A stretch of DNA of 64,000 nucleotides, taken from positions 14,136,001-14,200,000 of the forward strand of contig OZ024765.1 of NCBI GenBank assembly GCA_964016885.1. The letters are read 5' to 3'. A program made the translations under genes and the position numbers. Below, piece by piece: positions 4,579 to 47,535 of the stretch (its first letter is position 1; each line of letters opens with the position of its first letter). The notes beneath the pieces are model-generated. The model saw only the letters and a program-made list of their open reading frames with translations, made no database searches and was not told the origin of the DNA. Origin of the DNA: Eledone cirrhosa. Its lineage: Eukaryota.

Positions 4579-4613
<35 letters not shown>

Positions 4614-4619
4614 TAGTTT

Positions 4620-4910: not shown

Positions 4911-4912
4911 AA

Positions 4913-11664: not shown

Positions 11665-12774
11665 CTGCTTATTAACTCTTTCCCGAAACATTTATTTCTT
11701 CAAAATAAGGTAAGACATCTCGAAAAATATTATAAGGTGTTTCAATAATTATTCCGTTTCAGTCAATTTCTCATTTCAGCTTTCTTTAGAAATGTCATGG
11801 CGTTGAAGATACATATATTTGTTCTTCTCATAGTAATTAGTTTGTTTCAAAATTGTTCGTATTGTTTCCATGTTTAGTGTCACAAACTATCTATCGTTAA
11901 TTCAAGATTTTGCTCTAATGTAATAAATGTTACTTTTAAAAGACTGAAGCTCTCAATTTTTTCTTTTTCTTGTATATTGATATCTAAAGAATGGCAACTG
12001 TGTGTGTTATGTGATAGGAGAAAAAAAACAACGGCCTTCTTCCATCGCTATAGAAGGCTAACTGACAATGTCGTTCGTAGGAATGACAAGTACTCGGCAA
12101 CAGTGAGCATCACATATTTAGTGATGGTCACCTCTTACTGCCTTTTATATACCATGTTAACTGGAAAGACTTGCCAAGTATGGATACACTCTCTCCTTAT
12201 CAATATTGCCCGAGTCCGAGGACATTTTCTCCCTGGTTAAGGAATGAGATAAAATATTAGGGATCAATCTCTAGCAATAATTAAATTAAATTATATTTAA
12301 CCAAAACTGTTATGTCGTGGTTGTTGCTATATTTTATAGTCGTGGTTTCAATGTTTAACAGGGGTTGTAGAATTAGATTTATCTAATTATTATAAAACAA
12401 AACAGATTTATATATTGTCGCCGTTGTACGTTAAAATCGCATATATATTTATATACACACCAAGGATGGAGGGACGACGGAATTGAAAACCATTATTGCT
12501 GAGTACATCACGGCAAGATCTAATACACACACACACACTCTCCCGTATATATTTAATAATCAGCTATGACCATAAAGAAGGTCGTTGTAGGATCTAATGA
12601 ACCCGAAAGAAAGTGAAAATATATTTTATGAAAGCCCCAGAAGAATAAATGTAAACATTGACCCGATTATAGTAGAAATAAGAATGAGAAAGCCATGAAC
12701 GCCAGCACATCTATTTTGCTTTGAAATTGAAAGTAGGTTTATAAATATTAATTTTTTCTTATGTCCTTGTATCT

Positions 12775-12847
12775 GTTTCGTTGGCCTAATGGTAGGTGTT
12801 AGAGACTATGTAGACACTGATGTGGTGTTCAATCTCAGTCCGAATCT
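12775..12847 (+). pseudogene. tRNA-like cassette 1 (degenerate tRNA / SINE-head-like Pol III promoter)
   Basis: A box TGGCCTAATGG, B-box-like TGTTCAATCTC, tRNA length, upstream TTTATAAATA, downstream T5. Stems pair poorly. The four-cassette cluster recurs at 17364-18062, 21928-22626, 26505-27202, 31061-31759, 35633-36331, 40224-40922, 44801-45499, 49384-50082, 53962-54660, 58540-59238 and 63113-63811. Confidence 0.6.
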
Positions 12848-12910
12848 GTACTATATATTTTTAAATTTAAATTTTTCTCTAGCAAAGTAAAAAATGAAAT
12901 TATTATCTAT

Positions 12911-12983
12911 AGACTTTGACTGAGATCGAAACCCCGAGCAGGTTCTCCACCGTCTCTAATACCTACCATTAGGCCACGGAGAC
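12911..12983 (-). pseudogene. tRNA-like cassette 2
   Basis: Minus strand GTCTCCGTGGCCTAATGGTAGGTATTAGAGACGGTGGAGAACCTGCTCGGGGTTTCGATCTCAGTCAAAGTCT. It has an A box and a B-like box but no canonical cloverleaf, and is convergent with cassette 1. Confidence 0.6.
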
Positions 12984-13064
12984 AGATATAAAAACAGTGT
13001 GAAAATTAATATTTATAAAGTTACTTTTTTATTTTTGTTTTATACTATAAAAAAATATAATACG

Positions 13065-13137
13065 ACACACTGCCAGTGATTGAACCCCGGACCTGGACCT
13101 CCACCGGCTCTTATACTTACCACTAGGCTAAAGTGAC
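13065..13137 (-). pseudogene. tRNA-like cassette 3
   Basis: Minus strand GTCACTTTAGCCTAGTGGTAAGTATAAGAGCCGGTGGAGGTCCAGGTCCGGGGTTCAATCACTGGCAGTGTGT. A box TAGCCTAGTGG, B box GGTTCAATC, followed by T6. Confidence 0.65.
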
Positions 13138-13186
13138 GGTTACAGACACTTACTGAAAATTGATATTTATAAACCTACTTTTTCAT

Positions 13187-13361
13187 TACTAGAAAAAACC
13201 GGAAGTGGAGATAATTGAAAAACATCTTCTTTTTCTTCCTCTGATTTTTTTTTATCCAAAATTTGGATTTAAGTCAGAGACGAGTTATCGTTCGTGGCAA
13301 AAATCAGAGGAAGAAAAAGAAAAAGTTTTTCAATTTTCTCCACTTCCGGTTTTTTCTAGTA
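13187..13361. repeat. Hairpin with ~63-bp arms, each carrying ACCGGAAGTG (present in every unit)
   Basis: tactagaaaaaaccggaagtggagataattgaaaaac...ctctgattttt / aaaaatcagagg...ttctccacttccggttttttctagta with a ~48-nt loop. Confidence 0.92.
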
Positions 13362-13401
13362 TAGGTAAGTAAATATTAATTTTCAAAAAATTTTTCTAAC
13401 C

Positions 13402-13474
13402 GTCCCTGTGGCCTAATGGTAAGTACTAGAGACGGTGGAGATACTGATTTAGGGTTCGATTTCCGTTAGGTTCT
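13402..13474 (+). pseudogene. tRNA-like cassette 4
   Basis: GTCCCTGTGGCCTAATGGTAAGTACTAGAGACGGTGGAGATACTGATTTAGGGTTCGATTTCCGTTAGGTTCT. A box TGGCCTAATGG (as in tRNA-Arg), B box GGTTCGATTTC, acceptor stem only 5/7 paired, anticodon stem unpaired, T6 downstream. Confidence 0.7.
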
Positions 13475-13636
13475 ATACTAATAACTGCGTATTTTTTGCT
13501 TTTATTAAGTAAGATTTGAACTAATAATGCTGTACTTTGTAGTAATGTCCCATATTATATTCAAGATATTTTAATTAAAATTTGTTTTTTTTATAAAAGA
13601 AAGAACAAAAAACCTTATTGAAATTAAGAAATGAAT

Positions 13637-13825
13637 TTTATTCAGTAAAGTTGTTTTTATTTTGTATTCACTTCATTAACTGCTGAATACGTCTTTTGTT
13701 TTTGATTCCTTCTAACCATCGTTTACTGCAAATGGTGGCTGCAACGAACCTGGATTATTACCAAGTTTCACTGGATGATTGTATTATTTTGTTGTCAGTG
13801 GACATCTGGACATCTATCTAAATAC
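13637..13825 (-). other. Putative terminal exon, paralog A (repeated in each unit)
   Basis: Minus-strand acceptor cttgtgtttattccAG|GTATTTAGATAGATGTCCAGATGTCCACTGA (YLDRCPDVH*). AATAAA at 13637-13642 and 13656-13661. Homologous to 15601-15766. Confidence 0.4.
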
Positions 13826-14312
13826 CTGGAATAAACACAAGGTGTGTGTTTTACGTAACATTTCATTTTAATGTCTGATGTTCCTGTATATCACATTTAA
13901 AATGTAACCAATAAACAAGACAGGGACGTTACATCAAAAGAAACCACACAGACGAGGTATGAATAATGTAAAATTCATTTTAACAAACTATAAACGATGT
14001 TTAAAGAGAGACAAACATTAAAAAAAAGGATTTCAAACAAACACGTAAACACAAAGACAATTACAGCCATAATCTAATATCTGAAGATCAACATTTTTCA
14101 CGATAGAAATAAAACTAAATATGTAAAGCTTAGTGGCCCCTGATTTACTTGCTTTTAATTTCATTTTGATAAACTGTATTCTGTAGACATATATTTATGA
14201 TTTTAATGATGAAATTTCCTCTTGTCTTTAAAAGATTATTACTTATAAAAAATTATAATAGTTACCTCCTCCTCTGGATTAATATATAGCATCATTCGAG
14301 GTAGCTTACCCC

Positions 14313-14630
14313 CAGGGGTTCCTCAACTGGGCGATTTCAGCTGTTGGGTAGGCGATGAGCAGCTGAACAGAAAATTGAGGGCCATTGGAAACTTTGGTGG
14401 CCGATGTAGAATTTTGAGATTTAAGAAGGTATGCTACCCGAAAACCTATTCAAGGAATATATGCAAAGAACCCGAATAAAAATCAGGAAGCTAATTGGGA
14501 AAATTGAACCAGGAACAAACATTTACGAAACATATTTGGTATACTTTGGAATATTTACTATACAGGTGGCTGGTGGAACATTTTTTCACGTGAATGTGGG
14601 TAATGACGCCAAAATATTTGGCAACCCTTG
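14313..14630. mobile_element. hAT (Buster/Charlie-type) MITE, ~318 bp, one per repeat unit
   Basis: The ends CAGGGGTTCCTCAA ... TTTGGCAACCCTTG are imperfect hAT-type TIRs. The flanks GCTTACCC / GCTTACAC form a 7/8 TSD with central TA; the boundary is uncertain by 1 nt. There is an internal hairpin at 14321-14380. Confidence 0.72.
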
Positions 14631-15457
14631 GCTTACACCTTACTAAATGTTCTGGAGACAAGCCTCATAGTTATATATCATAGTTCTTCAATCCTTCATC
14701 TTCCACCATTGGTGAAGTATTTCGATTTGATATGGCGATCGCAGAGTTAGATTTAGGACGTGGTGGCGTTCATGGGTTTCTTAGTGTTGTTACTAGAAAG
14801 GGTCGACTCTGTCTTTCACACTTCAGGTTTTTTCATGAATTAAATATCCATTTTCTTTCTGATCGGTCTAACAATGATTTCAACCTACAATGACTCCGTC
14901 TGTAATAATGTTCTCTTATTTGAAATATGTCATACCTAACTCCCGTGTCTGTGTGTGTTAAAAATATTCCAACTTAGAGCGACGTTCCCGTAAATTGTTT
15001 AGCCTGAGTCCTATATATAGATAATGTGTAATATTTGAACCTTCATTGAGGGTCTTTGCCGTAATTTCCCGTAACTCCGACTAGAAGTCATTATGTAGTT
15101 TTTTCGTCCGTTAAAAATAATGATTAAAACAATTCTATATCCACAGTTATATACACCTCTTCATCACATATTATATTATTTACACCAATAACTACATTAT
15201 ATCCTTAAATATGACACGAAGATATATAATTTGTAAATAAAAGATAAAATATTAAAACCTCAATTTTTAAATAATTTTACCCCACATTTATGTTCTCAGT
15301 GTTTAGATAAATCCATAATTTTATGATTTTGGAGCAGATAACATAGTACCAGTCATGTACTGGGATCAATTTAACGGATTGGTTCCTCCCCGCAAATTAC
15401 TTGACTTTTGCCTAAGTAAGACATACTCACAGAATGTAACGATGTATATGTATGAAT

Positions 15458-15477
15458 CTATATATATAATAATATAT

Positions 15478-15510
<33 letters not shown>
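15458..15510. repeat. (AT)n microsatellite, length-variable among units
   Basis: The tract length differs between copies (short near 29187, long near 24611), which shifts the spurious 61-71 aa ORFs. Confidence 0.9.
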
Positions 15511-15512
<2 letters not shown>

Positions 15513-15600
15513 TATGTATATATTTTATGTTTACAATAAAAATAGACAAACAATTTAATGATAATATGAAATGAAATTATTATTATTTATTAATAATATT

Positions 15601-15766
15601 TTTATTGTTTTCACTGCATTAACTTCTGAGTGTGACTTTATTTTTCTTACTATTTTCTACTGTAAATGGCGGCTTAATTGGTTTATTACTAACGTTTACT
15701 GGATTGTGGTGTTTCTTTATTGTTTTATATTTCAATCAGTGGACATCAGGATAGCTTTCTATATAC
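15601..15766 (-). other. Putative terminal exon, paralog B (repeated in each unit)
   Basis: Minus-strand acceptor ctctttacatttatcccAG|GTATATAGAAAGCTATCCTGATGTCCACTGA (YIESYPDVH*). AATAAA at 15601-15606. Confidence 0.4.
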
Positions 15767-15984
15767 CTGGGATAAATGTAAAGAGTACTGACTTTCATCT
15801 GCAGTTGAATGGTGATGTCTTCTTATATTTTCATTTACTTCTGCAATACTGTATATTGTAGTCTTTTCATTATTTTAAATATTTCTATCATGTCACTCGT
15901 TTGATATATCTCCCCGAAAGATGTAGTTATTCAGGGCTTTACATTGGAATAGTGTACTACTATTTAAATATTAGTCCTTTACAT

Positions 15985-16285
15985 ATATATTTCTATCATG
16001 TCCCCCCACCCTCTTAGATTTATCTCCTCTAAATTTGCAATCCCTAAAGTTTAACATCTTTCTTCAGAAGACATATTTCTTAATAATTCTGGTGTTTTCT
16101 GTTTTGTTCTTCTCTGGATTCCTTCAATAGCTTCTCCGTGCCCCAAAACAATATTCTAGGTCGTATCACACATATCATTCAACTAGTATTTTAGACCTCT
16201 CGACATTTAGCTAGGCAAAGGAATGTTTTATTATTCCTATCATCTGAATTCCTTTTTTTTCTTCAACATGTTTAGCCATCTTTAA
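15985..16285 (-). mobile_element. Decayed CR1-clade LINE ORF2 3' fragment (one per unit)
   Basis: The minus strand, read through stops and frameshifts, gives KMAKHVEEKKGIQMIGIIKHSF...DLEYC...IEGIQRRTKQKTPELLRNMSSEERC*TLGIANLEEINLRGWGDMIEIY. This matches the CR1 post-RT motif series LG.IKR.F / LEYC / E..QRRATK..P.L...SYEER...LG...LE..R.RGDMIE.YK. Confidence 0.8.
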
Positions 16286-16726
16286 AATCATATTCATACA
16301 TATTCCCAATTCCTCGTGGAGGGGTATAAGAGACATGTATAAATATAGCTGCATATTACTACAAAATAACTTGAACCATATGGCGAAACATTTTGTAAAG
16401 TATCTCTGTAACTATTCTCATTTCGATTTTCTGTAGAATGTATTGACGTTTAAGATAGAGACAATTGCCCTTCTTCTAATAATCTCTTTGTCCATTCCAT
16501 GTTTAGTATCACAAAATATTGTTAATGCAAGATTTTGCTCTAATGTAATAAATGTTACTTTTAAAAGACCGAAGTTCTCAATTTTCTTCTTTCTCTTGTA
16601 TATTGATATCTAAAGGATGACAAATGTATGAATTATGTGATAGGGAGGAAAAAAGCCACGACCTTTTTCTCTCGTTACAGAGGGCTAACTGAGAACGTCT
16701 TTCGCAGGAGTGACTAGTACTACTGC

Positions 16727-16736
16727 CTTTTATATA
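16727..16736 (-). promoter_or_regulatory. Candidate TATA box (TATATAAAAG), also at 12142-12151
   Basis: A consensus TATA conserved between the diverged flank copy and all units, pointing toward the putative exon B. No transcript evidence. Confidence 0.3.
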
Positions 16737-19700
16737 CCGTGACAACTGGAAAGACGTGACAAATAAGGATACACTCTGCTCTCCTTATCAACATTGTCCG
16801 AGTCTGAGGACCTTTCCTCCCTGGTTAAGGAGTGAGATAAAATATTAAGGATCAATCTCTAGCAATAATTTCATTAAATCATATTTAACCAGAGACTGTT
16901 ATGTCGTGGTTGTTGTTATATTTTATAGTCGTGGTTTCAATGTTTAACAGGGGTTGTAGAATTAGATTTATCTAATTATTATAAAACAAAACAGATTTAT
17001 ATATTGTCGCCGTTGTACGTTAAAATCGCATATATATTTATATACACACCAAGGATGGAGGGACGACGGAATTGAAAACCATTATTGCTGAGTACATCAC
17101 GGCAAGATCTAATATACACACACACACTCTCCCGTATATATTTAATAATCAGCTATGACCATAAAGAAGGTCGTTGTAGGATCTAATGAACCCGAAAGAA
17201 AGTGAAAATATATTTTATGAAAGCCCCAGAAGAATAAATGTAAACATTGACCCGATTATAGTAGAAATAAGAATGAGAAAGCCATGAACGCCAGCACATC
17301 TATTTTGCTTTGAAATTGAAAGTAGGTTTATAAATATTAATTTTTTCTTATGTTCTTGTATCTGTTTCGTTGGCCTAATGGTAGGTGTTAGAGACTATGT
17401 AGACACTGATGTGGTGTTCAATCTCAGTCCGAATCTGTACTATATATTTTTAAATTTAAATTTTTCTCTAGCAAAGTAAAAAATGAAATTATTATCTATA
17501 GACTTTGACTGAGATCGAAACCCCGAGCAGGTTCTCCACCGTCTCTAATACCTACCATTAGGCCACGGAGACAGATATAAAAACAGTGTGAAAATTAATA
17601 TTTATAAAGTTACTTTTTTATTTTTGTTTTATACTATAAAAAATATAATACGACACATTGCCAGTGATTGAACCCCGGACCTGGACCTCCATCGGCTCTT
17701 ATACTTACCACTAGGCTGAAGGGACGGTTACAGAAACTTACTGAAAATTGATATTTATAAACCTACTTTTTCATTACTAGAAAAAACCGGAAGTGGAGAT
17801 AATTGAAAAACATCTTCTTTTTCTTCCTCTGATTTTTTTTTATCCAAAATTTGGATTTAAGTCAGAGACGAGTTATCGTTCGTGGCAAAAATCAGAGGAA
17901 GAAAAAGAAAAAGTTTTTCAATTTTCTCCACTTCCGGTTTTTTCTAGTATAGGTAAGTAAATATTAATTTTCAAAAAATTTTTCTAACCGTCCCTGTGGC
18001 CTAATGGTAAGTACTAGAGACGGTGGAGATCCTGATTTAGGGTTCGATTTCCGTTAGGTTCTATACTAATAACTGCGTATTTTTTGCTTTTATTAAGTAA
18101 GATTTGAACTAATAATGCTGTACTTTGTAGTAATGTCCCATATTATATTCAAGATATTTTAATTAAAATTTGTTTTTTTTATAAAAGAAAGAACAAAAAA
18201 CCTTATTGAAATTAAGAAATGAATTTTATTCAGTAAAGTTGTTTTTATTTTGTATTCACTTCATTAACTGCTGAATACGTCTTTTGTTTTTGATTCCTTC
18301 TAACCATCGTTTACTGCACATGGTGGCTGCAACGAACCTGGATTATTACCAAGTTTCACTGGATGATTGTATTATTTTGTTGTCAGTGGACATCTGGACA
18401 TCTATCTAAATACCTGGAATAAACACAAGGTGTGTGTTTTACGTAACATTTCATTTTAATGTCTGATGTTCCTGTATATCACATTTAAAATGTAACCAAT
18501 AAACAAGACAGGGACGCTACATCAAAAGAAACCACACAGACGAGGTATGAATAATGTAAAATTCATTTTAACAAACTATAAACGATGTTTAAAGAGAGAC
18601 AAACATTAAAAAAAAGGATTTCAAACAAACACGTAAACACAAAGACAATTACAGCCATAATCTAATATCTGAAGATCAACATTTTTCACGATAGAAATAA
18701 AACTAAATATGTAAAGCTTAGTGGCCCCTGATTTACTTGCTTTTAATTTCATTTTGATAAACTGTATTCTGTAGACATATATTTATGATTTTAATGATGA
18801 AATTTCCTCTTGTCTTTAAAAGATTATTACTTATAAAAAATTATAATAGTTACCTCCTCCTCTGGATTAATAAATAGCATCATTCGAGGTAGCTTACCCC
18901 TAGGGGTTCCTCAACTGGGCGATTTCAGCTGTTGGGTAGGCGATGAGCAGCTGAACAGAAAATTGAGGGCCATTGGAAACTTTGGTGGCCGATGTAGAAT
19001 TTTGAGATTTAAGAAGGTATGCTACCCGAAAACCTATTCAAGGAATATATGCAAAGAACCCGAATAAAAATCAGGAAGCTAATTGGGAAAATTGAACCAG
19101 GAACAAACATTTACGAAACATATTTGGTATACTTTGGAATATTTACTATACAGGTGGCTGGTGGAACATTTTTTCACGTGAATGTGGGTAATGACGCCAA
19201 AATATTTGGCAACCCTTGGCTTACACCTTACTAAATGTTCTGGAGACAAGCCTCATAGTTATATATCATAGTTCTTCAATCCTTCATCTTCCACCATTGG
19301 TGAAGTATTTCGATTTGATATGACGATCGCAGAGTTAGATTTAGGACGTGGTGGCGTTCATGGGTTTCTTAGTGTTGTTACTAGAAAGGGTCGACTCTGT
19401 CTTTCACACTTCAGGTTTTTTCATGAATTAAATATCCATTTTCTTTCTGATCGGTCTAACAATGATTTCAACCTACTCCGTCTGTAATAATGTTCTCTTA
19501 TTTGAAATATGTCATACCTAACTCCCGTGTCTGTGTGTGTGAAAAATATTCCAACTTAGAGCGACGTTCCCGTAAATTGTTTAGCCTGAGTCCTATATAT
19601 AGATAATGTGTAATATTTGAACCTTCATTGAGGGTCTTTGCCGTAATTTCCCGTAACTCCGACTAGAAGTCATTATGTAGTTTTTTCGTCCGTTAAAAAT

Positions 19701-20042
19701 AATGATTAAAACAATTCTATATCCACAGTTATATACACCGCTTCATCACATATTATATTATTTACACCAATAACTACATTATATCCTTAAATATGACACC
19801 AAGATATATAATTTGTAAATAAAAGATAAAATATTAAAACCTCAATTTTTAAATAATTTTACCCCACATTTATGTTCTCAGATAAATCCATAATTTTATG
19901 ATTTTGGAGCAGATAACATAGTACCAGTCATGTACTGGGATCAATTTAACGGATTGGTTCCTCCCCGCAAATTACTTGACTTTTGCCTAAGTAAGACATA
20001 CTCACAGAATGTAACGATGTATATGTATGAATCTATATATAT

Positions 20043-20078
<36 letters not shown>

Positions 20079-23000
20079 GTATATATTTTATGTTTACAAT
20101 AAAAATAGACAAACAATTTAATGATAATATGAAATGAAATTATTATTATTTATTAATAATATTTTTATTGTTTTCACTGCATTAACTTCTGAGTGTGACT
20201 TTGTTTTTCTTACTATTTTCTACTGTAAATGGCGGCTTAATTGGTTTATTACTAACGTTTACTGGATTGTGGTGTTTCTTTATTGTTTTATATTTCAATC
20301 AGTGGACATCAGGATAGCTTTCTATATACCTGGGATAAATGTAAAGAGTACTGACTTTCATCTGCAGTTGAATGGTGATGTCTTCTTATATTTTCATTTA
20401 CTTCTGCAATACTGTATATTGTAGTCTTTTCATTATTTTAAATATTTCTATCATGTCACTCGTTTGATATATCTCCCCGAATGATGTAGTTATTCAGGGC
20501 TTTACATTGGAATAGTGTACTACTATTTAAATATTAGTCCTTTAAATATATATTTCTATCATGTCCCCCCCCCCCTCTTAGATTTGTCTCCTCTAAATTT
20601 GCAATCCCTAAAGTTTAACATCTTTCTTCAGAAGACATATTTCTTAATAATTCTGGTGTTTTCTGTTTTGTTCTTCTCTGGATTCCTTCAATAGCTTCTC
20701 CGTGCCCCAAAACAATATTCTAGGTCGTATCACACATATCATTCAACTAGTGTTTTAGACCTCTCGACATTTAGCTAGGCAAAGGAATGTTTTATTATTC
20801 CTATCATCTGAATTCCTTTTTCTTCTTCAACATGTTTAGCCATCTTTAAAATCATATTCATACATATTCCCAATTCCTCGTGGAGGGTTATAAGAGACAT
20901 GTATAAATATAGCTGCATATTACTACAAAATAACTTGAACCATATGGCGAAACATTTTGTAAAGTATCTCTGTAATTATTCTCATTTCGATTTTCTGTAG
21001 AATATATTGACGTTTAAGATAGAGACAATTGCCCTTCTTCTAATAATCTCTTTGTCCATTCCATGTTTAGTATCACAAAATATTGTTAATGCAAGATTTT
21101 GCTCTAATGTAATAAATGTTACTTTTAAAAGACCGAAGTTCTCAATTTTCTTCTTTCTCTTGTATATTGATATCTAAAGGATGACAAATGTATGAATTAT
21201 GTGACAGGGAGGAAAAAAGCCACGACCTTTTTCTCTCGTTACAGAAGGCTAACTGAGAACGTCTTTCGCAGGAGTGACTAGTACTACTGCCTTTTATATA
21301 CCGTGACAACTGGAAAGACGTGACAAATAAGGATACACTCTGCTCTCCTTATCAACATTGTCCGAGTCTGAGGACCTTTCCTCCCTGGTTAAGGAGTGAG
21401 ATAAAATATTAGGGATCAATCTCTAGCAATAATTTCATTAAATCATATTTAACCAGAGACTGTTATGTCGTGGTTGTTGTTATATTTTATAGTCGTGGTT
21501 TCAATGTTTAACAGGGGTTGTAGAATTAGATTTATCTAATTATTATAAAACAAAACAGATTTATATATTGTCGCCGTTGTACGTTAAAATCGCATATATA
21601 TTTATATACACACCAAGGATGGAGGGACGACGGAATTGAAAACCATTATTGCTGAGTACATCACGGCAAGATCTAATACACACACACACACTCTCCCGTA
21701 TATATTTAATAATCAGCTATGACCATAAAGAAGGTCGTTGTAGGATCTAATGAACCCGAAAGAAAGTGAAAATATATTTTATGAAAGCCCCAGAAGAATA
21801 AATGTAAACATTGACCCGATTATAGTAGAAATAAGAATGAGAAGACCATGAACGCCAGCACATCTATTTTGCTTTGAAATTGAAAGTAGGTTTATAAATA
21901 TTAATTTTTTCTTATGTTCTTGTATCTGTTTCGTTGGCCTAATGGTAGGTGTTAGAGACTATGTAGACACTGATGTGGTGTTCAATCTCAGTCCGAATCT
22001 GTACTATATATTTTTAAATTTAAATTTTTCTCTAGCAAAGTAAAAAATGAAATTATTATCTATAGACTTTGACTGAGATCGAAACCCCGAGCAGGTTCTC
22101 CACCGTCTCTAATACCTACCATTAGGCCACGGAGACAGATATAAAAACAGTGTGAAAATTAATATTTATAAAGTTACTTTTTTATTTTTGTTTTATACTA
22201 TAAAAAATATAATACGACACACTGCCAGTGATTGAACCCCGGACCTGGACCTCCACCGGCTCTTATACTTACCACTAGGCTAAAGTGACGGTTACAGACA
22301 CTTACTGAAAATTGATATTTATAAACCTACTTTTTCATTACTAGAAAAAACCGGAAGTGGAGATAATTGAAAAACATCTTCTTTTTCTTCCTCTGATTTT
22401 TTTTTATCCAAAATTTGGATTTAAGTCAGAGACGAGTTATCGTTCGTGGCAAAAATCAGAGGAAGAAAAAGAAAAAGTTTTTCAATTTTCTCCACTTCCG
22501 GTTTTTTCTAGTATAGGTAAGTAAATATTAATTTTCAAACATTTTTTCTAACCGTCCCTGTGGCCTAATGGTAAGCACTAGAGACGGTGGAGATCCTGAT
22601 TTAGGGTTCGATTTCCGTTAGGTTCTATACTAATAACTGCGTATTTTTTGCTTTTATTAAGTAAGATTTGAACTAATAATGCTGTACTTTGTAGTAATGT
22701 CCCATATTATATTCAAGATATTTTAATTAAAATTTGTTTTTTTTATAAAAGAAAGAACAAAAAACCTTATTGAAATTAAGAAATGAATTTTATTCAGTAA
22801 AGTTGTTTTTATTTTGTATTCACTTCATTAACTGCTGAATACGTCTTTTGTTTTTAATTCCTTCTAACCATCGTTTACTGCAAATGGTGGCTGCAACGAA
22901 CCTGGATTATTACCAAGTTTCACTGGATGATTGTATTATTTTATTGTCAGTGGACATCTGGACATCTATCTAAATACCTGGAATAAACACAAGGTGTGTG

Positions 23001-24610
23001 TTTTACGTAACATTTCATTTTAATGTCTGATGTTCCTGTATATCACATTTAAAATGTAACCAATAAACAAGACAGGGACGCTACATCAAAAGAAACCACA
23101 CAGACGAGGTATGAATAATGTAAAATTCATTTTAACAAACTATAAACGATGTTTAAAGAGAGACAAACATTAAAAAAAAGGATTTCAAACAAACACGTAA
23201 ACACAAAGACAATTACAGCCATAATCTAATATCTGAAGATCAACATTTTTCACGATAGAAATAAAACTAAATATGTAAAGCTTAGTGGCCCCTGATTTAC
23301 TTGCTTTTAATTTCATTTTGATAAACTGTATTCTGTAGACATATATTTATGATTTTAATGATGAAATTTCCTCTTGTCTTTAAAAGATTATTACTTATAA
23401 AAAATTATAATAGTTACCTCCTCCTCTGGATTAATATATAGCATCATTCGAGGTAGCTTACCCCCAGGGGTTCCTCAACTGGGCGATTTCAGCTGTTGGG
23501 TAGGCGATGAGCAGCTGAACAGAAAATTGAGGGCCATTGGAAACTTTGGTGGCCGATGTAGAATTTTGAGATTTAAGAAGGTATGCTACCCGAAAACCTA
23601 TTCAAGGAATATATGCAAAGAACCCGAATAAAAATCAGGAAGCTAATTGGGAAAATTGAACCAGGAACAAACATTTACGAAACATATTTGGTATACTTTG
23701 GAATATTTACTATACAGGTGGCTGGTGGAACATTTTTTCACGTGAATGTGGGTAATGACGCCAAAATATTTGGCAACCCTTGGCTTACACCTTACTAAAT
23801 GTTCTGGAGACAAGCCTCATAGTTATATATCATAGTTCTTCAATCCTTCATCTTCCACCATTGGTGAAGTATTTCGATTTGATATGGCGATCGCAGAGTT
23901 AGATTTAGGACGTGGTGGCGTTCATGGGTTTCTTAGTGTTGTTACTAGAAAGGGTCGACTCTGTCTTTCACACTTCAGGTTTTTTCATGAATTAAATATC
24001 CATTTTCTTTCTGATCGGTCTAACAATGATTTCAACCTACAATGACTCCGTCTGTAATAATGTTCTCTTATTTGAAATATGTCATACCTAACTCCCGTGT
24101 CTGTGTGTGTGAAAAATATTCCAACTTAGAGCGACGTTCCCGTAAATTGTTTAGCCTGAGTCCTATATATAGATAATGTGTAATATTTGAACCTTCATTG
24201 AGGGTCTTTGCCGTAATTTCCCGTAACTCCGACTAGAAGTCATTATGTAGTTTTTTCGTCCGTTAAAAATAATGATTAAAACAATTCTATATCCACAGTT
24301 ATATACACCTCTTCATCACATATTATATTATTTACACCAATAACTACATTATATCCTTAAATATGACACCAAGATATATAATTTGTAAATAAAAGATAAA
24401 ATATTAAAACCTCAATTTTTAAATAATTTTACCCCACATTTATGTTCTCAGTGTTTAGATAAATCCATAATTTTATGATTTTGGAGCAGATAACATAGTA
24501 CCAGTCATGTACTGGGATCAATTTAACGGATTGGTTCCTCCCCGCAAATTACTTGACTTTTGCCTAAGTAAGACATACTCACAGAATGTAACGATGTATA
24601 TGTATGAATC

Positions 24611-24667
<57 letters not shown>

Positions 24668-27600
24668 ATGTTTACAATAAAAATAGACAAACAATTTAAT
24701 GATAATATGAAATGAAATTATTATTATTTATTAATAATATTTTTATTGTTTTCACTGCATTAACTTCTGAGTGTGACTTTGTTTTTCTTACTATTTTCTA
24801 CTGTAAATGGCGGCTTAATTGGATTATTACTAAGGTTTACTGGATTGTGGTGTTTCTTTATTGTTTTATATTTCAATCAGTGGACATCAGGATAGCTTTC
24901 TATATACCTGGGATAAATGTAAAGAGTACTGACTTTCATCTGCAGTTCAATGGTGATGTCTTCTTATATTTTCATTTACTTCTGCAATACTGTATATTGT
25001 AGTCTTTTTATTATTTTAAATATTTCTATCATGTCACTCGTTTGATATATCTCCCCGAAAGATGTAGTTATTCAGGGCTTTACATTGGAATAGTGTACTA
25101 CTATTTAAATATTAGTCCTTTACATATATATTGCTATCATGTCCCCCCACCCTTCTAGAATTATCTCCTCTAAATTTGCAATCCCTAAAGTTTAACATCT
25201 TTCTTCAGAAGACATATTTCTTAATAATTCTGGTGTTTTCTGTTTTGTTCTTCTCTGGATTCCTTCAATAGCTTCTCCGTGCCCCAAAACAATATTCTAG
25301 GTCGTATCACACATATCATTCAACTAGTGTTTTAGACCTCTCGACATTTAGCTAGGCAAAGGAATGTTTTATTATTCCTATCATCTGAATTCCTTTTTTT
25401 TCTTCAACATGTTTAGCCATCTTTAAAATCATATTCATACATATTCACAATTCCTCGTGGAGGGGTATAAGAGACATGTATAAATATAGCTGCATATTAC
25501 TACAAAATAACTTGAACCATATGGCGAAACATTTTGTAAAGTATCTCTGTAATTATTCTCATTTCGATTTTCTGTAGAATGTATTGACGTTTAAGATAGA
25601 GACAATTGCCCTTCTTCTAATAATCTCTTTGTCCATTCCATGTTTAGCATCACAAAATATTGTTAATGCAAGATTTTGCTCTAATGTAATAAATGTTACT
25701 TTTAAAAGACCGAAGTTCTCAATTTTCTTCTTTCTCTTGTATATTGATATCTAAAGGATGACAAATGTATGAATTATGTGATAGGGAGGAAAAAAGCCAC
25801 GACCTTCTTCTCTCGTTACAGAAGGCTAACTGAGAACGTCTTTCGCAGGAGTAACTAGTACTACTGCCTTTTATATACCGTGACAACTGGAAAGACGTGA
25901 CAAATAAGGATACACTCTGCTCTCCTTATCAACATTGTCCGAGTCTGAGGACCTTTCCTCCCTGGTTAAGGAGTGAGATAAAATATTAGGGATCAATCTC
26001 TAGCAATAATTTCATTAAATCATATTTAACCAGAGACTGTTATGTCGTGGTTGTTGTTATATTTTATAGTCGTGGTTTCAATGTTTAACAGGGGTTGTAG
26101 AATTAGATTTATCTAATTATTATAAAACAAAACAGATTTATATATTGTCGCCGTTGTACGTTAAAATCGCATATATATTTATATACACACCAAGGATGGA
26201 GGGACGACGGAATTGAAAACCATTATTGCTGAGTACATCACGGCAAGATCTAATACACACACACACACTCTCCCGTATATATTTAATAATCAGCTATGAC
26301 CATAAAGAAGGTCGTTGTAGGATCTAATGAACCCGAAAGAAAGTGAAAATATATTTTATGAAAGCCCCAGAAGAATAAATGTAAACATTGACCCGTTTAT
26401 AGTAGAAATAAGAATGAGAAAGCCATGAACGCCAGCACATCTATATTGCTTTGAAATTGAAAGTAGGTTTATAAATATTAATTTTTTCTTATGTTCTTGT
26501 ATCTGTTTCGTTGGCCTAATGGTAGGTGTTAGAGACTATGTAGACACTGATGTGGTGTTCAATCTCAGTCCGAATCTGTACTATATATTTTTAAATTTAA
26601 ATTTTTCTCTAGCAAAGTAAAAAATGAAATTATTATCTATAGACTTTGACTGAGATCGAAACCCTATCAGGTTCTCCACCGTCTCTAATACCTACCATTA
26701 GGCCACGGAGACAGATATAAAAACAAGGTGAAAATTAATATTTATAAAGTTACTTTTTTATTTTTGTTTTATACTATAAAAAATATAATACGACACACTG
26801 CCAGTGATTGAACCCCGGACCTGGACCTCCACCGGCTCTTATACTTACCACTAGGCTAAAGGGACGGTTACAGAAACTTACTGAAAATTGATATTTATAA
26901 ACCTACTTTTTCATTACTAGAAAAAACCGGAAGTGGAGATAATTGAAAAACATCTTCTTTTTCTTCCTCTGATTTTTTTTTAACCAAAATTTGGATTTAA
27001 GTCAGAGACGAGTTATCGTTCGTGGCAAAAATCAGAGGAAGAAAAAGAAAAAGTTTTTCAATTTTCTCCACTTCCGGTTTTTTCTAGTATAGGTAAGTAA
27101 ATATTAATTTTCAAAAAATTTTTCTAACCGTCCCTGTGGCCTAATGGTAAGTACTAGAGACGGTGGAGATCCTGATTTAGGGTTCGATTTCCGTTAGGTT
27201 CTATACTAATAACTGCGTATTTTTTGCTTTTATTAAGTAAGATTTGAACTAATAATGCTGTACTTTGTAGTAATGTCCCATATTATATTCAAGATATTTT
27301 AATTAAAATTTGTTTTTTTTATAAAAGAAAGAACAAAAAACCTTATTGAAATTAAGAAATGAATTTTATTCAGTAAAGTTGTTTTTATTTTGTATTCACT
27401 TCATTAACTGCTGAATACGTCTTTTGTTTTTGATTCCTTCTAACCATCGTTTACTGCAAATGGTGGCTGCAACGAACCTGGATTATTACCAAGTTTCACT
27501 GGATGATTGTATTATTTTGTTGTCAGTGGACATCTGGACATCTATCTAAATACCTGGAATAAACACAAGGTGTGTGTTTTACGTAACATTTCATTTTAAT

Positions 27601-30600
27601 GTCTGATGTTCCTGTATATCACATTTAAAATGTAACCAATAAACAAGACAGGGACGCTACATCAAAAGAAACCACACAGACGAGGTATGAATAATGTAAA
27701 ATTCATTTTAACAAACTATAAACGATGTTTAAAGAAAGACAAACATAAAAAAAAAGGATTTCAAACAAACACGTAAACACAAAGACAATTACAGCCATAA
27801 TCTAATATCTGAAGATCAACATTTTTCACGATAGAAATAAAACTAAATATGTAAAGCTTAGTGGCCCCTGATTTACTTGCTTTTAATTTCATTTTGATAA
27901 ACTGTATTCTGTAGACATATATTTATGATTTTAATGATGAAATTTCCTCTTGTCTTTAAAAGATTATTACTTATAAAAAATTATAATAGTTACCTCCTCC
28001 TCTGGATTAATATATAGCATCATTCGAGGTAGCTTACCCCCAGGGGTTCCTCAACTGGGCGATTTCAGCTGTTGGGTAGGCGATGAGCAGCTGAACAGAA
28101 AATTGAGGGCCATTGGAAACTTTGGTGGCCGATGTAGAATTTTGAGATTTAAGAAGGTATGCTACCCGAAAACCTATTCAAGGAATATATGCAAAGAACC
28201 CGAATAAAAATCAGGAAGCTAATTGGGAAAATTGAACCAGGAACAAACATTTACGAAACATATTTGGTATACTTTGGAATATTTACTATACAGGTGGCTG
28301 GTGGAACATCTTTTCACGTGAATGTGGGTAATGACGCCAAAATATTTGGCAACCCTTGGCTTACACCTTACTAAATGTTCTGGAGACAAGCCTCATAGTT
28401 ATATATCATAGTTCTTCAATCCTTCATCTTCCACCATTGGTGAAGTATTTCGATTTGATATGACGATCGCAGAGTTAGATTTAGGACGTGGTGGCGTTCA
28501 TGGGTTTCTTAGTGTTGTTACTAGAAAGGGTCGACTCTGTCTTTCACACTTCAGGTTTTTTCATGAATTAAATATCCATTTTCTTTCTGATCGGTCTAAC
28601 AATGATTTCAACCTACAATGACTCCGTCTGTAATAATGTTCTCTTATTTGAAATATGTCATACCTAACTGCCGTGTCTGTGTGTGTGAAAAATATTCCAA
28701 CTTAGAGCGACGTTCCCGTAAATTGTTTAGCCTGAGTCCTATATATAGATAATGTGTAATATTTGAACCTTCATTGAGGGTCTTTGCCGTAATTTCCCGT
28801 AACTCCGACTAGAAGTCATTATGTAGTTTTTTCGTCCGTTAAAAATAATGATTAAAACAATTCTATATCCACAGTTATATACACTTCTTCATCACATATT
28901 ATATTATTTACACCAATAACTACATTATATCCTTAAATATGACACCAAGATATATAATTTGTAAATAAAAGATAAAATATTAAAACCTCAATTTTTAAAT
29001 AATTTTACCCCACATTTATGTTCTCAGTGTTTAGATAAATCCATAATTTTATGATTTTGGAGCAGATAACATAGTACCAGTCATGTACTGGGATCAATTT
29101 AACGGATTGGTTCCTCCCCGCAAATTACTTGACTTTTGCCTAAGTAAGACATACTCACAGAATGTAACGATGTATATGTATGAATCTATATATATATATA
29201 TATATATATATTTATGTATATATTTTATGTTTACAATAAAAATAGACAAACAATTTAATGATAATATGAAATGAAATTATTATTATTTATTAATAATATT
29301 TTTATTGTTTTCACTGCATTAACTTCTGAGTGTGACTTTGTTTTTCTTACTATTTTCTACTGTAAATGGCGGCTTAATTGGTTTATTACTAACGTTTACT
29401 GGATTGTGGTGTTTCTTTATTGTTTTATATTTCAATCAGTGGACATCAGGATAGCTTTCTATATACCTGGGATAAATGTAAAGAGTACTGACTTTCATCT
29501 GCAGTTCAATGGTGATGTCTTCTTATATTTTCATTTACTTCTGCAATACTGTATATTGTAGTCTTTTTATTATTTTAAATATTTCTATCATGTCACTCGT
29601 TTGATATATCTCCCCGAAAGATGTAATTATTCAGGGCTTTACATTGGAATAGTGTACTACTATTTAAATATTAGTCCTTTAAATATATATTTCTATCATG
29701 TCCCCCCCTCTTAGATTTGTCTCCTCTAAATTTGCAATCCCTAAAGTTTAACATCTTTCTTCAGAAGACATATTTCTTAATAATTCTGGTGTTTTCTGTT
29801 TTGTTCTTCTCTGGATTCCTTCAATAGCTTCTCCGTGCCCCAAAACAATATTCTAGGTCGTATCACACATATCATTCAACTAGTGTTTTAGACCTCTCGA
29901 CATTTAGCTAGGCAAAGGAATGTTTTATTATTCCTATCATCTGAATTCCTTTTTTTTCTTCAACATGTTTAGCCATCTTTAAAATCATATTCATACATAT
30001 TCACAATTCCTCGTGGAGGGGTATAAGAGACATGTATAAATATAGCTGCATATTACTACAAAATAACTTGAACCATATGGCGAAACATTTTGTAAAGTAT
30101 CTCTGTAATTATTCTCATTTCGATTTTCTGTAGAATGTATTGACGTTTAAGATAGAGACAATTGCCCTTCTTCTAATAATCTCTTTGTCCATTCCATGTT
30201 TAGCATCACAAAATATTGTTAATGCAAGATTTTGCTCTAATGTAATAAATGTTACTTTTAAAAGACCGAAGTTCTCAATTTTCTTCTTTCTCTTGTATAT
30301 TGATATCTAAAGGATGACAGATGTATGAATTATGTGATAGGGAGGAAAAAAGCCACGACCTTCTTCTCTCGTTACAGAAGGCTAACTGAGAACGTCTTTC
30401 GCAGGAGTGACTAGTACTACTGCCTTTTATATACCGTGACAACTGGAAAGACGTGACAAATAAGGATACACTCTGCTCTCCTTATCAACATTGTCCGAGT
30501 CTGAGGACCTTTCCTCCCTGGTTAAGGAGTGAGATAAAATATTAGGGATCAATCTCTAGCAATAATTTCATTAAATCATATTTAACCAGAGACTGTTATG

Positions 30601-33600
30601 TCGTGGTTGTTGTTATATTTTATAGTCGTGGTTTCAATGTTTAACAGGGGTTGTAGAATTAGATTTATCTAATTATTATAAAACAAAACAGATTTATATA
30701 TTGTCGCCGTTGTACGTTAAAATCGCATATATATTTATATACACACCAAGGATGGAGGGACGACGGAATTGAAAACCATTATTGCTGAGTACATCACGGC
30801 AAGATCTAATACACACACACACACTCTCCCGTATATATTTAATAATCAGCTATGACCATAAAGAAGGTCGTTGTAGGATCTAATGAACCCGAAAGAAAGT
30901 GAAAATATATTTTATGAAAGCCCCAGAAGAATAAATGTAAACATTGACCCGATTATAGTAGAAATAAGAACGAGAAAGCCATGAACGCCAGCACATCTAT
31001 TTTGCTTTGAAATTGAAAGTAGGTTTATAAATATTAATTTTTTCTTATGTTCTTGTATCTGTTTCGTTGGCCTAATGGTAGGTGTTAGAGACTATGTTGA
31101 CACTGATGTGGTGTTCAATCTCAGTCCGAATCTGTACTATATATTTTTAAACTTAAATTTTTCTCTAGCAAAGTAAAAAATGAAATTATTACCTATAGAC
31201 TTTGACTGAGATCGAAACCCCGAGCAGGTTCTCCACCGTCTCTAATACCTACCATTAGGCCACGGAGACAGATATAAAAACAGTGTGAAAATTAATATTT
31301 ATAAAGTTACTTTTTTATTTTTGTTTTATACTATAAAAAATATAATACGACACACTGCCAGTGATTGAACCCCGGACCTGGACCTCCACCGGCTCTTATA
31401 CTTACCACTAGGCTAAAGGGACGGTTACAGAAACTTACTGAAAATTGATATTTATAAACCTACTTTTTCATTACTAGAAAAAACCGGAAGTGGAGATAAT
31501 TGAAAAACATCTTCTTTTTCTTCCTCTGATTTTTTTTTATCCAAAATTTGGATTTAAGTCAGAGACGAGTTATCGTTCGTGGCAAAAATCAGAGGAAGAA
31601 AAAGAAAAAGTTTTTCAATTTTCTCCACTTCCGGTTTTTTCTAGTATAGGTAAGTAAATATTAATTTTCAAAAAATTTTTCTAACCGTCCCTGTGGCCTA
31701 ATGGTAAGCACTAGAGACGGTGGAGATCCTGATTTAGGGTTCGATTTCCGTTAGGTTCTATACTAATAACTGCGTATTTTTTGCTTTTATTAAGTAAGAT
31801 TTGAACTAATAATGCAGTACTTTGTAGTAATGTCCCATATTATATTCAACATATTTTAATTAAAATTTGTTTTTTTTATAAAAGAAAGAACAAAAAACCT
31901 TATTGAAATTAAGAAATGAATTTTATTCAGTAAAGTTGTTTTTATTTTGTATTCACTTCATTAGCTGCTGAATACGTCTTTTGTTTTTGTTTCCTTCTAA
32001 CCATTGTTTACTGCACATGGTGGCTGCAACGAACCTGGATTATTACCAAGTTTCACTGGATGATTGTATTATTTTGTTGTCAGTGGACATCTGGACATCT
32101 ATCTAAATACCTGGAATAAACACAAGGTGTGTGTTTTACGTAACATTTCATTTTAATGTCTGATGTTCCTGTATATCACATTTAAAATGTAACCAATAAA
32201 CAAGACAGGGACGCTACATCAAAAGAAACCACACAGACGAGGTATGAATAATGTAAAATTCATTTTAACAAACTATAAACGATGTTTAAAGAGAGACAAA
32301 CATTAAAAAAAAGGATTTCAAACAAACACGTAAACACAAAGACAATTACAGCCATAATCTAATATCTGAAGATCAACATTTTTCACGATTGAAATAAAAC
32401 TAAATATGTAAAGCTTAGTGGCCCCTGATTTACTTGCTTTTAATTTCATTTTGATAAACTGTATTCTGTAGACATATATTTATGATTTTAATGATGAAAT
32501 TTCCTCTTGTCTTTAAAAGATTATTACTTATAAAAAATTATAATAGTTACCTCCTCCTCTGGATTAATATATAGCATCATTCGAGGTAGCTTACCCCCAG
32601 GGGTTCCTCAACTGGGCGATTTCAGCTGTTGGGTGGGCGATGAGCAGCTGAACAGAAAATTGAGGGCCATTGGAAACTTTGGTGGCCGATGTAGAATTTT
32701 GAGATTTAAGAAGGTATGCTACCCGAAAACCTATTCAAGGAATATATGCAAAGAACCCGAATAAAAATCAGGAAGCTAATTGGGAAAATTGAACCAGGAA
32801 CAAACATTTACGAAACATATTTGGTATACTTTGGAATATTTACTATACAGGTGGCTGGTGGAACATTTTTTCACGTGAATGTGGGTAATGACGCCAAAAT
32901 TTTTGGCAACCCTTGGCTTACACCTTACTAAATGTTCTGGAGACAAGCCTCTTAGTTATATATCATAGTTCTTCAATCCTTCATCTTCCACCATTGGTGA
33001 AGTATTTCGATTTGATATGACGATCGCAGAGTTAGATTTAGGACGTGGTGGCGTTCATGGGTTTCTTAGTGTTGTTACTAGAAAGGGTCGACTCTGTCTT
33101 TCACACTTCAGGTTTTTTCATGAATTAAATATCCATTTTCTTTCTGATCGGTCTAACAATGATTTCAACCTACAATGACTCCGTCTGTAATAATGTTCTC
33201 TTATTTGAAATATGTCATACCTAACTCCCGTGTCTGTGTGTGTGAAAAATATTCCAACTTAGAGCGACGTTCCCGTAAATTGTTTAGCCTGAGTCCTATA
33301 TATAGATAATGTGTAATATTTGAACCTCCATTGAGGGTCTTTGCCGTAATTTCCCGTAACTCCGACTAGAAGTCAATATGTAGTTTTTTCGTCCGTTAAA
33401 AATAATGATTAAAACAATTCTATATCCACAGTTATATACACCTCTTCATCACATATTATATTATTTACACCAATAACTACATTATATCCTTAAATATGAC
33501 ACCAAGATATATAATTTGTAAATAAAAGATAAAATATTAAAACCTCAATTTTTAAATAATTTTACCCCACATTTATGTTCTCAGTGTTTAGATAAATCCA

Positions 33601-33746
33601 TAATTTTATGATTTTGGAGCAGATAACATAGTACCAGTCATGTACAATTTAACGGATTGGTTCCTCCCCGCAAATTACTTGACTTTTGCCTAAGTAAGAC
33701 ATACTCACAGAATGTAACGATGTATATGTATGAATCTATATATATA

Positions 33747-33778
<32 letters not shown>

Positions 33779-36700
33779 ATTTATGTATATATTTTATGTT
33801 TACAATAAAAATAGACAAACAATTTAATGATAATATGAAATGAAATTATTATTATTTATTAATAATATTTTTATTGTTTTCACTGCATTAACTTCTGAGT
33901 GTGACTTTATTTTTCTTACTATTTTCTACTGTAAATGGCGGCTTAATTGGTTTATTACTAACGTTTACTGGATTGTGGTGTTTCTTTATTGTTTTATATT
34001 TCAATCAGTGGACATCAGGATAGCTTTCTATATACCTGGGATAAATGTAATGAGTACTGACTTTCATCTGCAGTTCAATGGTGATGTCTTCTTATATTTT
34101 CATTTACATCTGCAATACTGTATATTGTAGTCTTTTCATTATTTTAAATATTTCTATCATGTCACTCGTTTGATATATCTCCCCGAAAGATGTAGTTATT
34201 CAGGGCTTTACATTGGAATAGTGTACTACTATTTAAATATTAGTCCTTTACATATATATTTCTATCTTGTCCCCCCACCCTCTTAGATTTATCTCCTCTA
34301 AATTTGCAATCCCTAAAGTTTAACATCTTTCTTCAGAAGACATATTTCTTAATAATTCTGGTGTTTTCTGTTTTGTTCTTCTCTGGATTCCTTCAATAGC
34401 TTCTCCGTGCCCCAAAACAATATTCTAGGTCGTATCACACATATCATTCAACTAGTGTTTTAGACCTCTCGACATTTAGCTAGGCAAAGGAATGTTTTAT
34501 TATTCCTATCATCTGAATTCCTTTTTTTTCTTTAACATGTTTAGCCATCTTTAAAATCATATTCATACATATTCACAATTCCTTGTGGAGGGAGATAAGA
34601 GACATGTATAAATATAGCTGCATATTACTACAAAATAACTTGAACCATATGGCGAAATATTTTGTAAAGTATCTCTGTAATTATTCTCATTTCGATTTTC
34701 TGTAGAATGTATTGACGTTTAAGATAGAGACAATTGCCCTTCTTCTAATAATCTCTTTGTCCATTCCATGTTTAGCATCACAAAATATTGTTAATGCAAG
34801 ATTTTGCTCTAATGTAATAAATGTTACTTTTAAAAGACCGAAGTTCTCAATTTTCTTCTTTCTCTTGTATATTGATATCTAAAGGATGACAAATGTATGA
34901 ATTATGTGATAGGGAGGAAAAAAGCCACGACCTTCTTCTCTCTTTACAGAAGGCTAACTGACAACGTCTTTCGCAGGAGTGACTAGTACTACTGCCTTTT
35001 ATATACCGTGACAACTGGAAAGACGTGACAAATAAGGATACACTCTGCTCTCCTTATCAACATTGTCCGAGTCTGAGGACCTTTCCTCCCTGGTTAAGGA
35101 GTGAGATAAAATATTAGGGATCAATCTCTAGCAATAATTTCATTAAATCATATTTAACCAGAGACTGTTATGTCGTGGTTGTTGATATATTTTATAGTCG
35201 TGGTTTCAATGTTTAACAGGCGTTGTAGAATTAGATTTATCTAATTATTATAAAACAAAACAGATTTATATATTGTCGCCGTTGTACGTTAAAATCGCAT
35301 ATATATTTATATACACACCAAGGATGGAGGGACGACGGAATTGAAAACCATTATTGCTGAGTACATCACGGCAAGATCTAATACACACACACACACTCTC
35401 CCGTATATATTTAATAATCAGCTATGACCATAAAGAAGGTCGTTGTAGGATCTAATGAACCCGAAAGAAAGTGAAAATATATTTTATGAAAGCCCCAGAA
35501 GAATAAATGTAAACATTGACCCGATTATAGTAGAAATAAGAATGAGAAAGCCATGAACGCCAGCACATCTATTTTGCTTTGAAATTGAAAGTAGGTTTAT
35601 AAATATTAATTTTTTCTTATGTTCTTGTATCTGTTTCGTTGGCCTAATGGTAGGTGTTAGAGACTATGTAGACACTGATGTGGTGTTCAATCTCAGTCCG
35701 AATCTGTACTATATATTTTTAAATTTAAATTTTTCTCTAGCAAAGTAAAAAATGAAATTATTATCTATAGACTTTGACTGAGATCGAAACCCCGAGCAGG
35801 TTCTCCACCGTCTCTAATACCTACCATTAGGCCACGGAGACAGATATAAAAACAGTGTGAAAATTAATATTTATAAAGTTACTTTTTTATTTTTGTTTTA
35901 TACTATAAAAAATATAATACGACACATTGCCAGTGATTGAACCCCGGACCTGGACCTCCACCGGCTCTTATACTTACCACTAGGCTAAAGGGACGGTTAC
36001 AGACACTTACTGAAAATTGATATTTATAAACCTACTTTTTCATTACTAGAAAAAACCGGAAGTGGAGATAATTGAAAAACATCTTCTTTTTCTTCCTCTG
36101 ATTTTTTTTTATCCAAAATTGGGATTTAAGTCAGAGACGAGTTATCGTTCGTGGCAAAAATCAGAGGAAGAAAAAGAAAACGTTTTTCAATTTTCTCCAC
36201 TTCCGGTTTTTTCTAGTATAGGTAAGTAAATATTAATTTTCAAACATTTTTTCTAACCGTCCCTGTGGCCTAATGGTAAGCACTAGAGACGGTGGAGATC
36301 CTGATTTAGGGTTCGATTTCCGTTAGGTTCTATACTAATAACTGTGTATTTTTTGCTTTTATTAAGTAAGATTTGAACTAATAATGCTGTACTTTGTAGT
36401 AATGTCCCATATTATATTCAACATATTTTAATTAAAATTTGTTTTTTTTATAAAAGAAAGAACAAAAAACCTTATTGAAATTAAGAAATGAATTTTATTC
36501 AGTAAAGTTGTTTTTATTTTGTATTCACTTCATTAACTGCTGAATACGTCTTTTGTTTTTGTTTTTGTTTCCTTCTAACCATTGTTTACTGCACATGGTG
36601 GCTGCAACGAACCTGGATTATTACCAAGTTTCACTGGATGATTGTATTATTTTGTTGTCAGTGGACATCTGGACATCTATCTAAATACCTGGAATAAACA

Positions 36701-38329: not shown

Positions 38330-38373
<44 letters not shown>

Positions 38374-47491: not shown

Positions 47492-47535
<44 letters not shown>

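Follow-up and report, generated by a model that had tools for sequence, protein, structure and literature searches.

The rodent 4.5SI and 4.5SH RNAs are Pol III RNAs of 94-98 nt whose genes contain A and B boxes together with a TATA-like box at -31/-24, and the available part of the source describes 4.5SI as tRNA-derived and 4.5SH as lying in hundreds of 4-5-kb tandem repeats (PMC10137851). The amphibian PolIII/TAN, OAX and Rana/polIII are presented, in the accessible text, as tRNA-like sequences in tandem repeats without a matching SINE, and PolIII/TAN was transcribed in vitro (PMC10702118). A Pol III promoter derived from a small-RNA gene is carried by the non-autonomous Helenus and Cassandra TRIMs, as far as the available excerpt goes (PMC10886601), and A/B boxes with a T run have been reported in a non-tRNA family at the mir-1829 loci of C. 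elegans (10.1101/2025.04.11.648421, in the portion available).

In this study, a 64-kb window (the whole stretch of DNA analyzed, C26:14136001-14200000 of the 3.0-Gb Eledone cirrhosa genome) was found to hold, from position 11768 onward, a tandem array with a unit of 4.56-4.59 kb, of which 12 units lie in the window and 16 exist in all. The 12 units begin at 12717, 17306 and so on to 63055, and an A-box search recovered four short cassettes in each, in the order +,-,-,+, which confirms the 48 cassettes (4 x 12) of the first-pass annotation. The 11 complete units are 98.9-99.9% identical to one another, and the four cassettes of a unit are about 70-77% alike. The features of the first unit and its surroundings are as follows.

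11768..64000 (+): tandem array, 12 units in the window
12575..12729 (+): upstream flank of ~150-200 nt, common to many paralogous cassettes and showing DNA-level duplication
12717..17305 (+): single tandem unit of 4.59 kb that is a dimer of an older module, without a long ORF
12730..12862 (+): cassette 1, leader with TATAAATA 12740-12747, A box 12782-12792, B box 12826-12835, T5 12858-12862, predicted RNA ~87 nt
12889..13027 (-): cassette 2, TATA 13017-13010, A box 12976-12966, B box 12932-12923, T run ~12894-12889, predicted RNA ~93 nt
13049..13181 (-): cassette 3, TATA 13171-13164, A box 13130-13120, B box 13086-13077, T7 13055-13049, predicted RNA ~86 nt
13187..13361 (no strand): hairpin, an internally shortened foldback (TA/CTAG...CTAG/TA) at the TATA box of cassette 4
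13362..13497 (+): cassette 4, damaged TATA AGTAAATA 13368-13375, A box 13409-13419, B box 13453-13462, T6 13492-13497, predicted RNA ~94 nt
14757..14859 (-): orphan copy of the upstream flank, where the paralogous module L024 has a cassette pair

The cassette anatomy is as first described except in cassette 4, with its damaged TATA box. The longest stop-to-stop frames in the 4.59-kb unit reach only about 100-120 aa. Low tRNA and Infernal scores had been anticipated, and in the window ARAGORN found 0 genes and Rfam gave 0 matches at the gathering cut-off; at E<=10 no Rfam match covered any cassette body, and the matches were mostly generic hairpin models on the hairpin. Contigs from public runs covered 30/30 bins of the window in three of four runs, which may be the assembly's own sample.

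A total of 189 cassettes were reduced to 56 non-redundant ones, of which 45 were aligned and 11 (truncated, leaderless or near-duplicate) were dropped; 5 further cassettes with large indels were left out of alignment A3. In 5'-to-3' order, a leader containing TATAAATA is followed by a variable spacer and tGTA, then by a body of tRNA length that includes both boxes (A and B), and finally by a variable trailer and the T run. The TATA box lies 30 nt from the conserved GTA in 40/45 non-redundant cassettes, and the start site is likely to be near this GTA; in the U6 locus L066 the TATA box starts at -30 (counted by eye). The interval from A box to B box is 43-44 nt in 37/45 cassettes, which is tRNA spacing. 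Trailers are short (only ~5-40 nt), and the predicted RNA is 75-115 nt long in 40/45 cassettes and 86-94 nt in the four of the window. The first run past +72 consists of T in 36/45 cassettes and of A in 6/45, T5 is present in 34/45 against 13% of background windows, and T4 in 40/45. A5 runs also occur downstream in 20/45 cassettes, which counts against the Pol III reading favored below and is attributed to the convergent partner cassettes. The arrangement is that of a type-2 Pol III gene, with A/B boxes at tRNA spacing, a TATA box about 30 nt upstream and oligo-T. None of the 16 loci found with a tRNA model had the 27-bp leader.

Membership in known classes was then considered. A tRNA gene was rejected, since the cloverleaf pairs 49% of cells in 40 cassettes (299/500 shuffles were as high), in agreement with the D-, anticodon- and T-stem pairing reported missing at the outset, and ARAGORN called 0/56 cassettes at default and 1 at the 90% threshold. 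A tRNA-derived SINE was rejected because leader and upstream flank are common to paralogues and, as originally noted, neither a SINE body nor a tail is present. As to the parent isotype, the likeness to tRNA-Glu is confined to the surroundings of the A box, and there were 0 matches to a tRNA-Arg-like pattern, whose gap was probably set too long. The heads of a SINE-like family with dispersed members show a weak likeness to the cassettes (best E=0.003). The U6-type (type 3) promoter does not apply either, since the octamer-like motif of five U6 upstream regions is absent from the cassettes and the two agree only in TATA position (both by eye). Vault RNA (RF00006) was excluded because the cassette profiles do not match a separate vault cluster on C3, and among the RF00006 matches listed over the cut-off none lay in cassette arrays. 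That cluster (C3:221.18-221.25 Mb; L109-L113, L116, L117) holds vault RNA candidates of two types, 87 and 93 nt, each with a TATA box and a T run, and 14/49 scored over the RF00006 cut-off; no literature on cephalopod vault RNA was found, and a broader search returned no relevant match.

The cassettes belong to a family of tRNA-derived mini-genes that has a few thousand members. The 27-bp leader has 3,721 matches in the genome at <=2 mismatches (control 0) and the leader-plus-A-box pattern 540 (control 0), and diverged copies lie on many contigs, so the dispersed copies that the first-pass annotation had suggested looking for do exist. In 17 loci fetched by leader alone, 85/86 leader matches (<=4 mismatches) are followed by a tRNA-like body. 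Other arrays of the window-type unit lie on C26, C20 and C18, and a count of a cassette-3 31-mer gives at least 189 such units in the assembly; the 48 cassettes, correct for the window, are therefore a small part of the total. Carriers include a 2-3-kb module, doubled in the window unit, that holds clusters of cassettes on C15, C18, C20 and C26; a dispersed element of ~1.1 kb whose ends are of the CAGTGGCGG type (L041, L055, L057, L060, L062); and 10-22-kb repeats near the contig ends of C8, C9, C10 and C13. Paralogous cassettes have 150-200 nt of upstream flank in common, which argues that they spread as DNA and not as SINEs. Leader patterns had 0 matches in metagenome and viral contigs, so a viral origin is without support. 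Searches of the octopus, cephalopod and general literature gave no description of the family, nor did passages of an O. vulgaris repeat paper; in Repbase/Dfam or the repeat library of that paper it may already be filed as a repeat of unknown type or a 'SINE'.

Several observations were made beside this survey. One cassette subfamily has its B-box segment doubled or tripled, with longer predicted RNAs, often near contig ends (L051, L092, L095-L098, L108 and the ends of C8, C9, C10 and C13). C2H2 zinc-finger ORFs adjoin cassette arrays at L021:8232-9257, just left of the window, and at L037:4965-5963, and long ORFs near other clusters resemble LINE, Penelope or Helitron fragments (all by eye). 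SINE insertions at or beside the TATA boxes of U6 genes and cassettes (L072, L075, L050:4850-5010, L058:9900-9940) suggest an insertion hotspot. Dispersed tRNA-scoring copies (L078, L080-L088) have anticodons that vary (mainly Ala-GGC), are preceded by an almost identical flank of 100 nt, and probably represent a tRNA-like gene carried by a DNA element.

When diverged copies are compared, the flanking DNA has changed far more than the leader and the B box. Relative site rates in the 45-cassette alignment are 0.3-0.5 for the leader, 0.53 for the A box and 0.59 for the B box, compared with 1.5 for the spacer and 1.9 for the trailer. Because the earlier search patterns demanded the leader, a body-only profile search was added, and among the 30 cassettes that it found outside these patterns 21 keep the leader at <=4/27 mismatches and 3 have 5-9, so that leader conservation is more than ascertainment; the other 6/30 have no leader in register, which counts against selection on it. 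Divergence in eight colinear modules is 0.19 for the flank; leaders (0.03-0.05) and B boxes (0.04-0.13) lie below this value, and spacers (0.35-0.41) and the A-B interval (0.29-0.35) above it. The A box, at 0.18-0.21, is close to the flank in these modules, and the best of 702 flank windows (0.057) is as conserved as the leader of cassette 1; both count against promoter selection, and the flanks may be a mosaic.

Compared with the systems described above, the cassettes resemble 4.5SI and 4.5SH in size, promoter and tandem setting, and no homology is claimed; as those genes are described in the available text, there is one per repeat, whereas the cassettes number 1-5 diverged copies per cluster and thousands in total, and have a 27-bp conserved leader and a fast-evolving body. 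With the amphibian repeats they have in common a tRNA-like sequence in tandem repeats without a matching SINE, but the amphibian units given in the accessible text are mostly 200-360 nt long, and the cassettes are old, 70-75%-alike paralogues in convergent clusters and several carrier repeats. Like Helenus and Cassandra, as the excerpt presents them, they would combine a small-RNA-gene-derived Pol III promoter with a non-autonomous repeat and are copied with their flank; an LTR pair, PBS and PPT were not seen around them (by eye, L062). They have A/B boxes and a T run as the mir-1829 loci do in the portion of that report available, and differ in having no pre-miRNA hairpin between B box and terminator. 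By analogy, the cassettes would work like rodent 4.5S genes and amphibian tRNA-derived repeats, yet belong to neither, and are distinguished by the size and conservation of the leader, the free body, the number of copies and the variety of carriers. As with tDNA barriers and extra-TFIIIC sites, function would rest on Pol III factor binding and not on an RNA. Compared with such sites, the cassettes keep the full set of TATA, A box, B box and terminator, and barrier activity would be hypothetical.

Variability among young units was analyzed in 46 units that are >=90% identical. Variable sites are in excess in the spacer, 16-17 nt 5' of the body (20/66 versus 140/1085 in flanks, p=3e-4), and in the body outside the boxes (45/204 versus 140/1085, p=1e-3), and the excess is unchanged when CpG is excluded. 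By cassette, spacer and body together have 7/68, 17/67, 20/67 and 21/68 variable sites in cassettes 1 to 4 (flank maximum 0.24). Counted in 100-bp windows across 30 units, the excess is modest: the two highest-ranking windows are cassette windows, and a third cassette window is level with windows outside the cassettes. Hypervariability of the inner 5' flank is a mark of active human tRNA genes, according to PMC6130373. The same genome provided controls, namely a tRNA-Glu tandem array with a 1.34-kb unit (C3:277.24-277.38 Mb) and a U6 tandem array with a 1.8-kb unit (C19:31.78-31.84 Mb). Inner 5' flank variability was 9/20 versus 184/1091 in the former (31 copies, p=0.0035), and 5' flank variability was 3/20 versus 23/650 for U6 (7 of 18 copies, p=0.04); the difference did not reach significance in a smaller U6 control (2/20 versus 6/205), and four vault RNA copies gave 5/20 versus 6/205. 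The hypervariable spacer and body are an indirect sign that points to Pol III transcription. Against this, cassette 1 has an intact promoter without excess while cassette 4 has a damaged TATA box with it, leader and boxes are not below flank variability in young units (11/102, 8/48, 7/40), and a strand bias of C over G is absent (13 alleles at 37 C sites versus 22 at 64 G sites); a bias appears for A over T alone (20 alleles at 63 sites versus 11 at 88, p=0.013). Derived alleles match a sister cassette in 25/86 cases versus 20.7 expected, without clear excess, so conversion among sister cassettes does not explain the variability, and sites at which all four cassettes agree are still variable (26/112). 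The body exceeds the flank 1.5-2x in long-term divergence and 1.7x in short-term variability, and from this agreement the body appears close to unconstrained.

The explanation that we favor, at about even odds, is that the cassettes are Pol III units with a hybrid TATA plus A/B promoter, in which the promoter is selected while transcription mutates the rest. The start signals are conserved and the rest is fast-changing, so the units are likely kept for being read and not for their RNA. TFIIIC would bind the A/B boxes and TFIIIB the TATA leader, transcription would begin near the conserved GTA and end at the T run to give a 75-115-nt RNA, and germline transcription would raise the local mutation rate. 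Selection would keep occupancy or transcription itself, which could provide large tandem and subtelomeric repeats with a chromatin landmark or barrier, favor their further duplication, or both. The array of non-tRNA small Pol III genes proposed by the first-pass annotation is thus supported in promoter anatomy, leader and B-box conservation and the hypervariable spacer, expression being predicted, and its periodic insulator would fit a promoter, and not an RNA sequence, being conserved. The favored reading predicts RNAs of 86-94 nt from the window unit and greater activity in cassettes 2-4 than in cassette 1, and it points to a class of unannotated Pol III units, thousands strong, in an animal genome. 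Such a family would separate promoter selection from RNA selection and provide a within-repeat test of transcription-associated mutagenesis. A bolder version, which we regard as unlikely, holds that thousands of lineage-specific Pol III mini-genes with a dedicated 27-bp promoter use transcription-associated mutation to generate a variable repertoire of ~90-nt RNAs, or chromatin landmarks, on small chromosomes and chromosome ends.

Alternatively, and with clearly lower probability, the RNA itself may be selected, as a lineage-specific, abundant small Pol III RNA of the 4.5SI/4.5SH kind that folds loosely into two hairpins, or as a diversified repertoire in which the variable parts matter. A two-hairpin model pairs 71% of cells, with only 1-2/500 shuffles as high in pairing and covariation score, but it was drawn from the same sequences, related unstructured sequences can reach such scores, and pairs with two-sided change are at chance (249/500). 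The 5' helix GTCTC/GAGAC has a probability >0.5 in 22/45 cassettes; however, RNAalifold predicted no structure for the cassettes, and the mean folding z is -0.55 with 2/45 below -2. Overall no fold has good support, although the weak two-hairpin signal allows for a selected RNA and so counts against the favored reading. T4 falls inside the first 72 nt in only 1/45 cassettes, in favor of an RNA-centered reading, but A4 is equally rare there (1/45). The 4.5SH genes, in their hundreds of 4-5-kb tandem repeats, have a reported function according to the accessible text (PMC10137851). Against this reading, the cassette body diverges faster than the flanks in the eight colinear modules. Under this reading and the favored one taken together, the units are probably transcribed.

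We consider it rather improbable that the cassettes are cargo of non-autonomous DNA elements, the leader being a transposase or recombinase site, or homogenized by gene conversion, and not a promoter. Convergent pairs, present at 16 loci in the +- arrangement, do make inverted repeats with the leader at their ends, and one subfamily lies within the dispersed element with CAGTGGCGG-type ends (L041, L055, L057, L060, L062). However, the homology running 150-200 nt past the leader means that the leader is not a terminus, cassettes occur single, tandem or divergent in several vehicles, and this reading leaves the B box, the constant spacing and the T run unexplained; the sister-allele and all-four-agreeing counts above also speak against homogenization. 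Least probable of all are inert, decayed tRNA or SINE heads amplified passively in a megasatellite, with an AT-rich leader conserved only seemingly through mutation bias: the cassettes have no ORF or Rfam match and the weak SINE-head likeness noted above, but at A/T columns alone the leader differs by 5% against 33% in the adjacent spacer (20 bystanders), and by 0-4% against 17% in flanks of the eight colinear modules.

The hairpin arms (13187-13249 and 13299-13361) are 63 nt long, as first reported, and they are 95% complementary. The hairpin is TA-flanked, another version is 41 nt longer, and it resembles an inverted repeat at window 5321-5827. A longer parent lies on C22 without a cassette (one 3-kb stretch of the C22 arrays was read). 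The earlier proposal that the cassettes are internal repeats of a foldback transposon is not supported, since the hairpin family is separate and occurs without cassettes, most cassette clusters have no hairpin, geometries differ, and the C18 block is inverted. TIRs with a target duplication were not found around the window-unit cassettes, and CAGTG-type ends bound one other subfamily without clear target duplication. The +,-,-,+ order occurs only in the 4.5-4.6-kb family; elsewhere cassettes are single or arranged +-, -+, ++-, +++- or ++++-. In the C18 array the block of cassette 4 plus hairpin is inverted to give +,-,-,-, which is also the layout of diverged clusters, and the more diverged L050 has the same junction, so the window layout is likely derived; it would have arisen by foldback insertion plus inversion. 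The +,-,-,+ geometry is incidental.

Other features were noted in and around the window unit. Tandem arrays on C22 with 6.3- and 7.1-kb units carry the foldback element at 15.1-15.2, 18.2 and 27.0-27.2 Mb, and a large imperfect palindrome (window 3568-7216) is centered on the hairpin-related inverted repeat 5321-5827. A Pol II-like TATA box lies at window 16723-16738 (-), and a duplicated block resembling a splice acceptor and last exon lies at 13566-13835 and 15506-15776 (-); the two possibly represent a non-coding Pol II transcript in the module, and the exon-like duplicate has indels in paralogues. The segment at window ~16000-16130 (-) resembles, in translation, the decayed 3' end of a LINE that we take to be of the CR1/L2 type.
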